From Octopus vulgaris (Eukaryota), in NCBI GenBank assembly GCA_951406725.2, contig OX597824.1:28582001-28646000 (forward strand): 64,000 nucleotides of DNA, in the 5' to 3' direction. Both the position numbers and the translations under genes were made by a program. This document shows, in pieces, positions 9,503 through 59,972 of the stretch (within the stretch, counting starts at the first letter, position 1; each line of letters opens with the position of its first letter). The notes under the pieces were generated by a model. It searched no databases, was not told where the DNA came from, and was given only the letters and a program-made list of their open reading frames with translations.

Positions 9503-9726
9503 ATATTTCTTTACGACCCACAAGGAGCTAAACACAGAGGGGACAAACAAGGACAGACAAAGGAATAAGTCGATTACATCGACCCCAGTGCGCAACTGGT
9601 ACTTAATTTATCGACCCCGAAAGGATGAAAGGCAAAGTCGACCTCGGCGGAATTTGAACTCAGAACGTAACGGCAGACGAAATACAGCTACGCATTCCGC
9701 CCGGCGTGCTAACGTTTCTGCCAGCA
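9503..9726 (-). mobile_element. Family B SINE monomer with Tx1-like tail
   Basis: Reverse complement of gctggcagaaacgttagcacgccggg..gagttcaaattccgccgaggtcgac..tttagctccttgtgggtcgtaaagaaat, ending in a TA run. Confidence 0.9.
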
Positions 9727-13898: not shown

Positions 13899-14061
<163 letters not shown>

Positions 14062-14065
<4 letters not shown>

Positions 14066-14220
14066 CCTTTCTACTATAGGCACAAGGCTTTACATATTTG
14101 GTGAGAGGCTAGTCGATTATATCGGCCGCAGTCCGTATCTGGTACTTATTTCATCGACCCCGAAAGGATGAAAGGCAAAGTCGACCTCGGCAGGATTTGA
14201 AGCGTAAAAAACGGACGAAA
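14062..14220 (-). mobile_element. Family B SINE, (ATT)n-terminated tail variant
   Basis: atcctttctactataggcacaaggc..tcgaccccgaaaggatgaaaggcaaagtcgacctcggc. Confidence 0.8.
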
Positions 14221-14559
14221 GACCTATAATTCTATCTAATGCTAATTCTATCCATAGGGCATGAAGTTACATACCAAGTTCACTACGCCGGACCCCAGTT
14301 CTTACGTGATACTTATTTCATTGACACCGAAAGCTGGAATTGAAACTCAGAACATAAACACTGATGAAATGTCGCTAAGTATTTTGACCAGCGTGCTAAC
14401 GACTCTGCCAGCTATCCGCTTTATATACGCAATCAGTATTGACCGATATTAGTTTTAATATATTTTTTTCACTAATTTTGCTTAATGCTGGCCTTTAGAC
14501 AAAAAGGGAAAAAACTTGAATTTGAAACTAAAAACATTAAAGGTTAGTGTGAAAATATT

Positions 14560-14817: not shown

Positions 14818-15046
14818 CGAGCCACCTTGGGCAAGTGTCTTTGTTAGTGGATTTGTTAGGCGGAAAGAAGCCTGTCGTATATATATATATATACATATAT
14901 ACTTGCCCAAGATATATATATATATATATATGCGACAGGCTTCTTTCCGCCTACCAAATCCACTAACAAAGACACTTGCCCAAGGTGACTCGTAGTGGAA
15001 CTGAACCCGTAACCATGTGTTTGGTAAGGAAGCTACTTACCACACT
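14560..15046 (-). mobile_element. Family A SINE with an internal inverted duplication
   Basis: Reverse complement of the family A consensus. 14813-14997 forms a foldback. Confidence 0.88.
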
Positions 15047-15106
15047 AATTTATTTCAGTTAGAAAAGCTATCAGTTACATATTCATATATTCATCATAAA
15101 CCTAAA

Positions 15107-15505
15107 TCGGTGAGCTAACAAAATCTTTCTTACGTCGGGCAAAATGCGTATCGGTATTTCTTCTGCGCTACGTTGTGGGTTCAAATTCCGCCGAGGTCGA
15201 CTTTGCCTTTCATCCTTTCGGGGTCGATAAATTAAGTACCAGTTACGCACTGGGGTCGATGTAATCGACTTAATACCTATGTCTGTCCTTGTTTGTCCCC
15301 TCTGTGTTTAGCCCCTTGTGGGTAATAAAGAAATAGGTATTTCTTCCGTCTTAACACTTTCGGCACAAATTTTGTCGAGGTCGACTTCGCCTTACATTCT
15401 TTCTGAGTTGATAAATTAAGTACCAGTCGGACACTAGAGTCAATCTAATCGACTCGCCCCTCACCCAAAATTGCCGGCCATGAGCCAAAATTTGAAACTA
15501 TTATT
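15107..15505 (+). mobile_element. Nested family B SINEs: a young Tx1-tailed unit inside an older copy
   Basis: GGTATTTCTTC is duplicated at 15153-15163 and 15336-15346 around a near-consensus unit, while the flanking SINE halves are degenerate. Confidence 0.85.
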
Positions 15506-15958
15506 AGTGGTGCTGGTGGTAGCGACGCTGGTTGGCGTTGCTGCACTAGTAATTGAGAAATGGGAAATGGGCTGAGTTGTCATCTTGTAAATGTTAAATG
15601 TACTTCTAATCTTAAAGGTAGTTCTTCTTGAGCTGGATTTCCTTTTTGATGTCTTTCATATTTTATGGTTGTGTTGATAGTGGGCGTGTCCGTTCGTTGT
15701 TGAGGGTGTGGCTTGCGGTTACTAGCGACGGAGAATGGGTGCAGTCAGAGGTGACGAATTGGTAGTACAATGAATAATTTGATATATGCGTGAAAAATTA
15801 CCTGCCATCTCTCAATGACTATTCTCACGATGGTTTGGATATATGCTTCTATAGATAGACTGACATACATACATGTGTACATGCATACGAACGGACGCAC
15901 ACATAGACGCGAGTGCACAAACTCACACACAAACACACACATATTTATGCATGTATAA

Positions 15959-16140: not shown

Positions 16141-16386
16141 GTTTCTTTATTGGCCACACAGGGCTGCACACAGATGGGACAAGTTACAAGGTAGAGCTTT
16201 TCTTTTGGGGGATGAAAAAAACAAAAAACAAAAAACAAAAAACAAAAGAAACAAAAAAAGGTGGCGTAGGTGTTCGATCAAAAGGGATCGTAAAAGGGAA
16301 AAAACAACAAAAAAAAAGAAAAGAGAAAAAGAAAAAAAGGAAAAGGAACAAAAGAAAAGAAAAATGAAAAAAGAAGAAAAAAAAGG
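16140..16386 (-). mobile_element. 3' end of a non-LTR retrotransposon inserted in (GATA)n
   Basis: The minus strand is a T-rich UTR ending cttgtcccatctgtgtgcagccctgtgtggccAATAAAgaaact followed by (TATC)n. GATA repeats lie on both sides (16098-16139, 16387-16544). Confidence 0.7.
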
Positions 16387-17103: not shown

Positions 17104-17107
17104 ATAT

Positions 17108-17309
17108 AACGTTAATCCAAACAAGAAAGCACAAAAAAACACAACGCGAGGACGTGGAACAAATATAGTATTATTGGACGCTCAGGAAAGAAGGAAAGAA
17201 GGAGGGTTTAACGTTTTGAGCGGAGCTCTTCGTCGGAAACATAGGAGAAGGAAAGATCCAGAGAAGGGAAGACAGAGGGAAAAATCGCCAACGGTACCTA
17301 CGTGGTCAC

Positions 17310-25510: not shown

Positions 25511-26810
25511 TATCTGGTCATCCAAATAAGTTCCGTGCGATTTTACCTTTTTTTAAAAATTAAGTGAAATTTAATAGTATTTTAAAATGTCTAATGGAAT
25601 TAAAAATTATTTTTATGGATTTGTGTACATTTAACCTAATTAAATATCATTTTACAGAATAATAGAATTAAAATTTCTTCGATTAAAACCCTTTCTAACA
25701 TTAATTGATTAAAAACCTTTCTCCAAAGAGCATTTAAGGCATATAATGATTTATGAGTACAAAAAAAAGAAACTCTGCAGCCGAAGCGACTCGACACATA
25801 AACTGAGTTTATGGGAAAGAATGCTTGAATGAAATTACTTGCAAAAGATGGTTTGCAAAATTCAGAAATGGAGATTTCAGCCTTGAAGATAAAGATCGAA
25901 TAGGATGTCCAGTAGAGTTTGATGATAAGTTCCATACGGCATTACTTGAAGAAAATCCTGCATTATCAGTTGAAGAATTGGCAATAAAGCTTAGTTCAAA
26001 CCATACAACTGATCATCGTCATCTTCAACAACTTGGAAAGGTTCCTAAACTTGGAAAATGGGTGCCTCATGAATTGTCCGAAAGTACCCGCAAATCTCGA
26101 GTTGACATCTGTTCTTCTCTTCATTCTCGCGAACTCATTTCACCTTTGGGATAGTCTTGTGACTAGTGAAGAAAACTGGATCTTCTATCTAAATGTTAAA
26201 CGTCATAAACAGTGGCTTGATGAAAGGGAGAACGCTGAACCGAGAAGGAAACTTAATGGGAAAATGTTCTTCTCTCTATCTGGTGGGATTGCAAATGAGT
26301 AATTCATTTTGAATTGTTACCACCTAATGCAACAATCAATGCTCAAGTCTACTGTCAGCAATTAGAGCGTTTGAACGAAGCTTTGAAGAAAAAAAGACAC
26401 GCTTTAGTGAATCGAAAAGGAGCGATGTTTCATCAGGACAATGCGCGATCCTACACTGCAACGATCACATCACAGAAGATTGAAGAGTTTGGTTGAGGAA
26501 AAATTTCTCATCCACCTTATTTTCCCGACCTTGCTCCTTCAGACTACCATTTGTATGGTAGTTTACGGAATCATTTGGGGGACATAATTTTCGCAAGCCA
26601 GGAGGAGATCGAAACTGACATCTCAGAGTTCTTCGCTTTGAAACCAAAAGAATTTTACGTTGATGGGATTAAAAAGCTCGTAAATAGATGGAAGGAAATC
26701 ATAGATAATCAGGGAAAGTACATTGATGATTAAATTTCAGTTAAATATAACATTTGATCGCGTGTTTTCTTTATTCAAACTTTGGACAGAACTTATGTGA
26801 AGGCATAATA
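25511..26810 (+). mobile_element. Near full-length degenerate mariner (DD34D) element, transposase pseudogene
   Basis: About 1.3 kb with TA-bounded imperfect TIRs. Motifs: RWFAKFRNGDFSLED, LGKWVPHEL, FHQDNAR-34 aa-PDLAPSDYH, GIKKLVNRWKEIIDNQGKYIDD*. Several frameshifts and stops. Confidence 0.93.
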
Positions 26811-51044: not shown

Positions 51045-51448
51045 ATATATTCTTTGCCACTCTATGCACAAGGTCCGAAATTTTGGGAGAGGAGACCAGT
51101 CGATTAGACCGATCCCAGTACGCAACTGGTATTTCATTTATAGACCCCGAACGGATGAAAGTCAAAGTCGACCTCGGTGGAATTTGAACTCAGAACGTAG
51201 AGGCAGACGAAATACCTATTTCTTTACTACCCACAAGAGGCTAAACACAGAGAAGACAAACAAGGACAGACAAACGGATTAAGTCGATTATATCGAACCC
51301 AGCGCGTAACTGGTACTTAATTTATCGACCCCGAAAGGATGAAAGGCAAAGTCGACCTCGGCGGAATTTGAACTCAGAATGTAATGGCAGAAGAAATACC
51401 ACTAAGCATTTCGCCAGGCGTGCTAACGTTTCTGCAAGCTCGCCGCTT
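51045..51448 (-). mobile_element. Family B SINE dimer or nest
   Basis: Head, Tx1-tailed unit, junction aaagaaata|ggtatttcgtc, then a second body with the alternative tail. Confidence 0.9.
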
Positions 51449-52215: not shown

Positions 52216-53478
52216 TAAGGCGGCGAGCTGGCAGAAACGTTAGCACGCCGGGCCGAGTGAAATGGTTAGCAGTATTTCGTCTGTCGCTACGTTCTGAGTT
52301 CAAATTCCGCCGAGGTAGACTTTGCCTTTCATCGATTAAATAAGTACCAGTTATGCACTGGTGTCGATGTAATCGACTTAATCTGTTTGTTTCTTCCCTC
52401 TGTGTTTATCCCCTTGTGGATGGTAAAGAAATAGGTATTTTGTCTGCCGTTACGTTCTGAGTTCAAATTTCGCCGTGGTCGACTTTGCCTTTCACCCTTT
52501 CGGCGTCCTTCAATTAAGTACCAGTTACGCACTGAGGTCGATGTAATCGACTTAATCCGTTTGTCTGTCCTTGTTTGTCTTCTCTTTGTTTGACCCACAA
52601 GGGGTCAAACAAAGAGAGGACAAACAGAAAAAGGTATTTCGTCAGCCGCTACGTTCTGAGTTCAAATTCTGCCGAGGTCGCCGTTGCCTTTCATCCTTTC
52701 GGGGTCGATAAATTAAGTACCAGTTACGCACTGAGGTCGATCTAATTGACTTAATCCCTTTGTCTGTCCTTGTTTGTCCTCTCTATTTTTAGCCCCTTGT
52801 GGGCACTAAAGAAATAAGAACTCTTATCGTGCCGGACAAAATTATTAGCGACATTTCGTCCGTCTTTACGTTCCGTGTTCAAATTTACTCAAGGTCGATT
52901 TTGTTTTTTAGCTTTTCGGGTTTGATATAAGTTCCAGTTGAACATTGCGTCTTATGTAATCGACTTACTCCCTCTGCTGAACTTGCTGGCCTTGTGCCAA
53001 ATTTTGAAACGAATATTTGATACATAAATAACGCGACGTTCTGACAAAATTGCTAGCGCGCCGGACAAAATTCTTAGCGTCATTTCGTCCGTCTTTACGT
53101 TCCGAGTTCAAATTCAGTCGAGGTCAACTTTGCCATTTATCCTTTTGGGTTTGATAAAATCAGTTCCAGTTGAACATTGCGTCTTATGTAATCGACTTAC
53201 TGCCTCTCCCGTACTTGCTGGCCTTGTGCCAAATTTTGAAACCAATATTTTATTCATAAGTAAGGCGACGTGCTGACAAAACTACTAGCACGCGGGACAA
53301 AATATTTAGTGGTGTTTCGTCCATCCTTACGTCCCGAGTTCAAATTCAGCCGAGGCTGACTTTGTTCTCCATCATTTCGAGGTCGATAAAATATATACCA
53401 GTTGAACAAATGAGTTGATGTAATCGATTCATGCCTCACCCAAATTTGCTGCCCTTGTGCCAAAAATTGAAATCAATG
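52216..53478 (+). mobile_element. Head-to-tail array of six family B SINE units
   Basis: Three young Tx1-tailed units (52216-52815), then three older units (about 52816-53020, 53030-53252, 53262-53478). Confidence 0.9.
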
Positions 53479-56809: not shown

Positions 56810-57397
56810 TTGGTCCCAATTTGCGGGAAGAACATAAATCGATTACATCGACCCCAGTGTTCTACTACTACTTATTTTACCGACGCGAAAAGGGATGAAG
56901 GGTAAAGTCTACCTCAGTGACATTTCAACTCGGAACATAAAGACTGATGAATTGCCGTCCAACATTTAGCCCGGCGTGGTAATGATTCCGCCAGATCGCT
57001 GCCTTTCTACTACAGGTACAAGGCCCGAAATTTGGGGGAGGGGACTAGTCGATTAAATCAACCCGTGTTTGAAGGTACTTAATTTATCGACCCTGAAAGG
57101 ATGAAAGGCAAAGTTGACCTCGGCGGAATTTGAACTCAGAACGTAGCGGTAGAAGAAATACCTATTTCTTTACTACGCACAAGAAGCTAAACACAGAGAC
57201 GACAAACAAAGACAGACAAACGTATTAAGTCGATTATATCGACACCAGTGCGTAACTGGTACTTATTTAATCGACACCGAGAGGATGAAAGGCAAAGCCG
57301 ACGACGGCGGAATTTGAACTCAGAACGTAACGGCAGACGAAATACCGCTAAGCATTTCGCCCGGCTTGCTAACGTTTCTGCCAGCTCGACGCCTTAA
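56810..57397 (-). mobile_element. Family B SINE cluster: old monomer 56810-57003 plus dimer 57004-57397
   Basis: Same aaagaaata|ggtatttc junction near 57162. Confidence 0.88.
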
Positions 57398-58089
57398 TGA
57401 CATTCTTATTATTGTTTATCATTAACAAACTGAAAGAGAATATTTACAAAATAACGGAACTATTATTAGCAAAATAAATACGTGCCAAAACGTCTTCATT
57501 AATTTCGAATATAAAATCCTTTCTGCTATAGGCACAAGGCCTGAAATTGTGGGAGAGGTGGTTAATCAATTACATTGAATAACCACTTTTCCCACAATAA
57601 GTAGCTGGTATTAATTTCATCGATCACGAATTGAAAGATAAAATATATATTTACATATACACGCCCGCGTGCGTGTGAGAGAGAGAGAGTGTTTGTGTGT
57701 ATGTGTTAGATTCATCCGTATCGTTGAAGAAGTTTTACAGAGAATTGGAGGAAAGAAAGGACATGCAAAGTGAAAGGAAGAGCTCTGAAATCGAACTAGT
57801 TACCTGAGAAACGCAAACATAAGACCGCCCCGTCTGACAAAGCTGAACCAACAGTGGTGCCACTTGCTACGAACAGAACAGGATAGCAACGGCCTAAAGA
57901 AAATGTGGACTATGCAAGCCTAGAGACAAGTTGCCTTCAATTTTAAGAAATCACAAAGGACCGCTCTGTAGTAGAGCCTTCCGATGAGGAGTCGGATTGA
58001 TTGGCCACGGCCGGACACACTTCTCCAATGTTATGTCCTTGGTCATTGTCGACTATACAGACGAATTATGAATAATAGTAATAATAATT

Positions 58090-58667: not shown

Positions 58668-58705
58668 TTGATGATGAGGATGATGCTAATAATAATAATA
58701 ATAAT

Positions 58706-59972
58706 GTGCAGAGGTACCAAAGATCAACTCCTAGTAGACAAAACTGTACTTATAGACTGCAAGAGGAGGGAGACTAATGCCTCCAAGTCATGGATCGATT
58801 ATCGTAAGGCGTACGATATTATGGAATGCATGAACGTATTTGGTATTGCATCGAATGTTGAGCGATTGCTTGGAAAATGTATGGCGAAATGGTGGATGGA
58901 ACTGACTGATTCTGAGGAAAGCAAAGGCTGGGTATGTATTCAAGAGCCGCCAACGCGAAGACAAGCACTTTTTATTCATGGATGACGTCCAAATTTATGA
59001 TAAAGATGAATCCTAAGTCAATTTCCTCGTTGATACGGTGTATACTTTCAGCGCTGATATCAGAATGGAGTTCGGACTGAAAAAGAGAGACGTGTTAGCC
59101 TTGAAGAGAGGTAAAATCAAATGTATGGACGGGCTAGCGATACCGTCGGGGAAAGTTATAAAGTAGATAGAAGAGACAGTCTATAAGCACGTGGGGATAT
59201 TGTACAGATTGATGGAAAAAGAAATAGCCAAAAAATTTAAAGTGGAATACTTGTGCAAACTGAGACTGATACTTAAGACGAAATCAAACGGACGGAATAA
59301 GATTGAAGCTATCAACACCTGGGTGGTTTTACTCCTTAGATATGAATCAGAGGTATCGCATGGAGAGTAGACAAACTAAACAGCTTAGACAGAAAGACAA
59401 GGAAGTTGCTGACAAGATATGGTATACTCCACCTAAAAAGTGACACAAACATACTGTTTGTACCACGAAAAAGCGGGGGAAGAGGACTGATTGGATATGA
59501 ACACAGCATTAGAGCAGAATAAAACAATATAGCATGGTATGTAAAGATACCACGGAACCGCTATTATTGGACGTAAGAAGGTCAGGCTTGCGTAACATGA
59601 AAGATGGCAAAGATAAAGCATTGTACAAGTACTTGGAGATGAATGAAACTGGAAATAGGTGGGTAAAGAAAAGAATGCACTGACAATTTCAAAGGGATGT
59701 TGAAGATAAGACAGACAGAGAAAAAAGATGATTATGGATGACTAAAAGTCATTTAAAACTGGAAGGTCTAATCTCTGCTGCTCAAGAGCAAGCATTAAGA
59801 ACCAGTTACATCTAATACAGAATAGATAAAACATCAGAATGTGATAAGTACAGTATTTGTAGACAAAATAGAGAAACCGTATGACATATTACCAGTAAAT
59901 GTACGCCAATAACCCAGAAAGAATATAATAGATGTCATGATAACATTAAGGGTTGTCCATTGTACACTTTGC
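58706..59972 (+). mobile_element. Decayed R4/Dong-type (RLE) non-LTR retrotransposon fragment flanked by (AAT)n
   Basis: [67 protein letters not shown], a decayed CCHC and an RHD-like motif. Many stops and deletions. Confidence 0.85.

Follow-up and report, generated by a model that had tools for sequence, protein, structure and literature searches.

A young SINE unit nested in an older copy of its own family, and a recurrent junction in the family head, in octopus DNA

The window, the whole 64-kb stretch of DNA that was analysed, has the character of AT-rich, microsatellite-rich eukaryotic DNA. It carries a short, dispersed SINE of high copy number: a profile of the head and core gave 26 matches covering 3468 bases (5.4% of the window), and comparison of positions 14945–15880 with contig sets from three other organisms matched 140,564, 178,188 and 275,443 records, counts that also take in a neighbouring second repeat. 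A (TA)n-rich stretch with inverted arms (GAAGCCTGTCG and CGACAGGCTTC) lies inside a second repeat family at positions 14866–14945.

Alignment of 19 segments defined one common head and core, and three tail types: tail A, which is young and ends TAAAGAAATA, B1 (middle) and B2 (old). In a tree built from the cores of the family copies, 1 of 16 inner branches was supported. Young heads contain an A-box-like motif (TGGCAGAAACG) and a B-box-like motif (GTTCAAATTCC), called against the A- and B-box consensus; the strict B-box pattern matches in the 15107 copy only. ARAGORN found no tRNA, and an Rfam tRNA search of positions 57000–57420 gave no match up to an E-value of 10; the SINEBase article defines a tRNA-derived SINE by at least 60% identity to a tRNA (PMC3531059). 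The tail pattern had 0 matches in viral, metagenome and GTDB contigs, and the core pattern had 0 in GTDB and viral contigs and 2 in metagenomes. Neither of the latter was retained as a family member, the first (L001) looking like a chance bacterial match and the second (L002) having only the core in common. Residing at positions 1001–1050 of L002 is a different SINE-like element that shares the central core alone, which hints at a conserved central domain.

At positions 15107–15505, a young SINE unit is nested in an older copy of its own family, joined to it in register at the 5′ side (Table 1). Measured against the leave-one-out consensus of the tail-A units, divergence is 3% in the inner core and 8% in the inner tail, compared with 29% in the 5′ head and 26% in the right core of the enclosing copy (Fisher p = 1e-5 and 9e-7, respectively, each against the inner core). 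Eight alignment columns are diagnostic of young and old copies; the inner unit is young at 5 of 6 (with one gap), and the flanking parts carry the old alleles given in Table 1. The switch from young to old falls on the edge of the 11-bp duplication. Both copies of the duplication have T instead of the majority G, and the same variant occurs in the left unit of the dimer at 51050–51447 and in the right half of that at 57005–57393, so that it is weaker as a marker for the duplication at 15107. The original prediction of a near-consensus unit between degenerate halves with an 11-bp duplication, inserted in register between the A-box-like and B-box-like motifs, is borne out by these measurements and the alignment.

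It had further been proposed that the new copy inherits the A box of the old one and that Pol III promoter sites are reused in this way. The old head is indeed kept at 15107, but the inherited box has decayed, with 5 of 11 letters differing between TAACAAAATCT in the old head and TGGCAGAAACG in three young heads. As this is the sole demonstrably inherited A box, and full-length tail-A units carry a head of their own (9504–9726), promoter reuse is unsupported.

Table 1. Features of the nested locus, the dimers, the chain, the monomer and the LINE-like end
Feature	Position	Strand	Basis
5′ head part of old target copy	15107..15152	+	13/45 differ relative to young heads; both head-diagnostic columns old
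Decayed A-box-like motif in old head	15116-15126	+	Motif comparison
11-bp duplication GGTATTTCTTC, first copy	15153..15163	+	Next base = young allele
Core of young inserted unit, in-register join	15164..15269	+	3/106 differ from tail-A consensus
B-box-like motif in young unit core	15178-15188	+	Motif
Tail A of young unit, ending AAAGAAATA; last 41 nt resemble LINE-like 3′ end	15270..15335	+	5/66 differ
11-bp duplication GGTATTTCTTC, second copy	15336..15346	+	Next base = old allele
Remainder of old target copy, B2-type old tail	15347..15505	+	Core 28/107 differ; old alleles at 4/6 diagnostic columns
Dimer: young head and tail-A unit, GGTATTT, B1-tailed half; flanked on each outer side by a 13-nt TA-rich word	51050..51447	-	Alignment, divergence
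Dimer: young head and tail-A unit, GGTATTT, B1-tailed half	57005..57393	-	Alignment, divergence
Three tail-A units chained (two GGTATTT junctions, second rearranged by inverted piece), ending on old B2 copy	52219..53015	+	Alignment
Stand-alone tail-A monomer, own head, then TA-rich non-SINE DNA; counter-example	9504..9726	-	Alignment
T-rich LINE-like 3′ end within (TATC)n; candidate relative of tail-A donor	16141..16386 (ends approximate, ~245 bp)	-	34/41 terminal nt match tail A

The junction between tail A and the following head recurs in the window. Its 16-mer, AAAGAAATAGGTATTT, is found exactly at 15327 (+), 51210 (-), 52425 (+) and 57156 (-), which confirms the four junctions predicted at about 15335, 51216, 52434 and 57162. 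Allowing up to 2 mismatches raises the number of matches to 7, where 0.15 would be expected and 0 of 100 shuffled sequences attain that number; the shuffle null ignores repeats, so this excess shows only homology of copies. One of the 2-mismatch matches, at 52624, adds a fifth junction (52633), in which the tail is rearranged by an inverted piece. The claim that tail A always ends at this site holds for 5 of the 7 tail-A units in the window, which stop at GGTATTT (15335, 51216, 52434, 57162 and 52633); the unit at 52816 is joined to an old B2 family head at a point 33 nt upstream of GGTATTT, a likely independent insertion, and the unit at 9504 runs into TA-rich non-SINE DNA. Random 3′ flanks had been named as a sign against targeting: within the window, six of the seven units end on a family head, five of them at one base, and one ends in non-SINE DNA, where family cores make up 5.4% of the sequence. 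Kojima's account of target-specific SINEs, in the section concerned, sets the threshold for specificity at more than 20% of flanks in one target class (PMC4494074), a share exceeded here by 6/7 (n = 7, window only). The targeting is a preference and not a rule.

The partners to the right of the junction are of type B2 (15336 and 52817), B1 (51215 and 57161) and A (52435 and 52633), and right halves drawn from three subfamilies argue against one single dimeric master. A survey of the insertion site in the 26 profile matches (4 without site coverage, 9 young, 13 old and readable) found GGTATTT intact in 1 of the 13 old copies, the nested one, a suggestive result (p approximately 0.08). These observations, together with the nested locus, make it fairly probable that a partner LINE, postulated from the tail, prefers the GGTATTT site in the family head and that the 5′ end is joined in register by homology.

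Of the 5 same-site junctions, 15107 alone has old halves on both sides; at the remaining junction loci the heads are young (2–7% diverged). In the two A–B1 dimers, which are 389–399 bp long, the heads are 7% (51050–51447) and 4% (57005–57393) diverged, with no second head remnant upstream. Left and right cores diverge by 6% and 12% in the former (p = 0.15) and by 8% and 11% in the latter (p = 0.64; pooled p = 0.13). The unequal age of inner and outer parts that the original prediction called for is thus observed at 15107, with no significant difference in the two A–B1 dimers, and, given their young heads, these dimers may be copies of a dimeric master. The predicted targeted retrotransposition accordingly stands for the young unit set into an old copy at the recurrent site, and is weakened for the dimers and by the incomplete site preference.

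The explanation thereby raised, which appears unlikely as a general account, is that one or a few dimeric masters (head–core–tail A–half head–core–tail B1; the OK family) made most of the junctions, that the chains arose by unequal crossing over and that 15107 goes back to a broken old monomer which, in a rare case of repair or conversion, used a dimer as its template. The length of the dimers, their young heads and the insignificant age gap between left and right agree with it, as does column 77, where the right half of both A–B1 dimers reads C against T in the left. The 13-nt word on both sides of 51050–51447 also favours it. Such outer duplications had been put forward as a refuting sign for targeting, yet this sign does not discriminate: the target copy brings a duplication of its own, so both models predict one on the outside, and the word would suit a dimer that was retroposed as well as a duplication belonging to the original target. 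Against dimeric masters stand the three subfamilies among the right halves, the join at another site at 52816 and the existence of stand-alone tail-A monomers. The two B1 halves, moreover, differ by 18%, compared with 11% for the left halves, and have no non-majority variant in common, a difference that is not significant. For conversion at 15107, strand invasion would have to proceed between sequences about 26% diverged, and the break would have to fall inside 11 of about 120 homologous bases.

At 14060–14417 (-), an old head and core are followed by a 67-nt spacer ending AGAATTATA and then, at 14230, by a B1 half that begins at the corresponding position (GGTCTTT). The spacer may represent a further tail that uses this site, or be due to chance. 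It shows no relation to tail A or to the 16141–16386 end, shuffled sequences reaching the alignment score in 1808 and 497 of 2000 cases, respectively, and the arrangement was left out of the junction count.

The chain at 52219–53015 bears on the origin of the dimers in another way. Its first unit has three variants (columns 140, 143 and 165) in common with the left unit of 57005–57393, the two being joined to partners of different types, and its three units differ from one another by 12–13%, as much as unlinked copies do; both points favour targeting. Independent hits would not readily place as many as three units at one locus, which speaks against it. At the junctions themselves, GAAATA at the end of the tail is reverse-complementary to TATTTC in the target, and each junction thus forms a small palindrome (15330–15343 and others). 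Both this complementarity and the origin of the chain units from different sub-subfamilies would suit template jumping within one round of reverse transcription, in which the enzyme would leave a SINE RNA at GGUAUUU and resume at the 3′ end of a tail-A RNA, so that A–B1 and A–A joins would arise with no DNA target. The folding energy of the junction hairpin is not significant, however (z = -0.66 and -0.82), and jumping could not place an old 5′ and an old 3′ half in register around a young unit; it is a highly improbable source of the junctions. Folds of the tail are inconsistent.

Several further rearrangements lie in this region. Positions 52593–52626 are an inverted duplicate of part of tail A, with variants otherwise private to the immediately preceding tail; the duplicate begins at an ACCC...GGGT inverted repeat and looks like a replication template switch. 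Three old family copies form a tandem array at 52831–53477 (period 232, 2.8 copies), and the cores of the copies at 52817 and 53030 are only 12% different.

The window also holds a candidate relative of the tail-A donor. The last 41 nt of tail A match the end of the T-rich element at 16141–16386 (Table 1) with an E-value of 4e-7, a score reached by 0 of 2000 shuffles. The element, which from its sequence appears to be a 5′-truncated LINE end, lies in a microsatellite rather than a SINE head, a point against the preferred-site reading. The LINEs Kibi and Koshi, of the Tx1 clade, and Dong target microsatellites, according to the passages on these elements in PMC3812793 and PMC4494074, and L1-Tx1 and Dong-R4 families are listed with recently active copies in O. 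vulgaris in Table 1 of PMC13282606. Because the tail-A end is common to the (TATC)n element and such a habit occurs in Tx1 and Dong LINEs, tail A likely derives from a lineage of sequence-preferring LINEs. No LINE with the same target as the SINE, and no ORF linked to tail A, was found in the 64-kb window.

Other mobile-element remains in the window comprise a second T-rich LINE-like end at 17105–17200 (-), running into (TA)n; a mariner transposase remnant at 25807–26151 (+), with a Pfam HTH_48 match (E = 1.2e-6); and a decayed reverse-transcriptase-like fragment at 58704–59970 (+) between two (TAA)n runs, which we take to be Dong/R4-like. The last was considered as the tail-A partner and rejected: it is without a 3′ end, and the one ORF scanned had no Pfam match.

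For the site-preferring partner LINE, we infer an enzyme, its nicks and an order of events as follows. A nick just before GGTATTT would allow target-primed reverse transcription to start at the tail end. A second nick about 11 bp downstream would leave an overhang matching the cDNA of the incoming head, which would give the in-register 5′ join, and the left copy of the resulting duplication would restore the insertion site, so that chains could grow. The site preference would not be absolute. T4 runs are absent from 3 of the 5 units scanned (the dimers at 51050–51447 and 57005–57393 and the monomer at 9504–9726), and in the remaining 2 they occur only within or past diverged parts. Pol III read-through is therefore possible, and some products of targeted insertion could become dimeric masters in turn. 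The competing models are not mutually exclusive, and the dimers are probably of mixed origin. Self-targeting is likely on the strength of one clean nested case and varied partners, within a sample of only seven units.

Read-through would also open a route to self-targeting guided by RNA, which we regard as distinctly improbable. A read-through RNA of a dimer would carry GGUAUUUC right after tail A, could pair with the nicked target strand and would in this way select family heads, the endonuclease itself being only loosely specific. Such guidance would account for both the fixed junction and the off-target monomers, and in R2-type elements target specificity is increased when target RNA is co-transcribed (work cited in the relevant part of PMC4494074). 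The join 33 nt upstream at 52816 would be left unexplained, and the data of the window do not separate guidance from endonuclease specificity. A broader form of the idea, which is doubtful, holds that this abundant SINE breeds inside itself, the 'fixed' dimer being mostly the product of many independent insertions at one head base, to which dimer read-through RNA would guide new copies. If true, it would amount to a self-reinforcing, RNA-guided homing loop with no host gene as target, leaving a datable stack of nested copies.

The comparison with other genomes covered 4 of 24 listed sequence sets, three of contigs and one of raw reads. Tail-to-head joints, which are in keeping with the preferred-site reading, are present in all three contig sets from other organisms (15335 to 15179 in 1, 4 and 19 contigs). 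Contig set X10 also has a 15343 to 15166 joint, the best supported of its joints among those listed, with a young-type bridge and a young-type second half (GTCTGCC, depth 448), which favours dimeric masters. In contig set X18, 1744 loose ends fall at 15335, with an agreement of 0.39. Six of the 24 listed pieces come up to the tail end and have at least 40 letters beyond it; 5 of them stop at 15332–15335 and 1 goes on to 15341. Many tail-A copies in the related genomes end in unrelated DNA. From these contigs, the monomer emerges as a mobile unit whose 3′ end is precise, and its targeting as non-exclusive. Contig counts are biased toward unique flanks and give no share of targeted insertions; per-bin depth likewise gives no share of tails entering GGTATTT, since clipping and unitig collapse confound it, and a raw-read set (X21) with 37 matching reads says nothing on junction shares. 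The orthologous 3′ flank of the nested locus is seen in X10 and X17, no piece spanning the locus, and no empty-site joint occurs among the 15 joints listed (1348 others). In X18, 1631 loose ends and 17 joints at 15280 place the distal part of tail A immediately after a B1-type body, suggesting an additional tail-swapped subfamily.

The dimer of the window is probably the octopus OK SINE, an assignment made by layout. OK is said to have been described by Ohshima and Okada in 1994 as one fixed composite family of about 410 bp with the layout X1-Y1-X2-Y2-Z. The window dimers, at 389–399 bp and with the order head–core–tail–half head–core–tail, likewise have the X and Y units twice, and this layout favours a dimeric master. 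They differ from the fixed composite reported for OK in occurring beside monomers, chains and partners from three subfamilies. The literature searched contains no account of self-targeting by this SINE family; an earlier description is possible, the 1994 OK work and supplements lying outside the search. The text and supplement of PMC13282606, as searched, make no mention of nesting, dimers or targeting.

If self-targeting operates as proposed, it would provide a running mechanism for the origin of dimeric SINEs and of tail swaps, which the MetaSINE work, in its discussion of the matter, left open and ascribed to template switching (PMC4824008). It would also account in part for the rise of SINEs, at low cost, to about 12% of an octopus genome (PMC13282606). 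A warning attaches to consensus-based annotation and age curves, which mix young and old halves.

Among known systems, complex dimeric SINEs such as B1-dID and Alu resemble the present dimers in having two SINE units head to tail, but, as described in the SINEBase article, they spread from a fixed dimeric master, whereas the halves at 15107 differ sharply in age (PMC3531059). The habit of Kibi, Koshi and Dong, as presented in the parts of PMC3812793 and PMC4494074 devoted to them, is matched by the 16141–16386 element, which carries the tail-A end inside (TATC)n; that element has no ORF attached, and the preferred site of the SINE itself is not a microsatellite. The closest precedent is SINEU-3 of crocodilians with its partner Tx1-Mar, although the octopus SINE does not belong to SINEU. 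Target specificity is rare among SINEs, and this documented case, in the sections of Kojima (2015) that treat it, lands in another element: SINEU-3 has a preferred insertion site in a repeat, ascribed to a Tx1 partner, and forms tandem copies around a duplication that were originally classed as a dimeric subfamily, SINEU-3B, and later reread as sequential insertions (PMC4494074). A preferred site in a repeat and tandem copies around a duplication are what the two systems have in common. The SINEU-3 head derives from an snRNA, in contrast to a head with A- and B-box-like motifs here, and its Tx1 LINE partner is named, whereas that of the octopus SINE is deduced from the tail. The target of SINEU-3 is an unrelated Mariner transposon; that of the octopus SINE is the head of its own family, and the 5′ join is for this reason homologous and in register.
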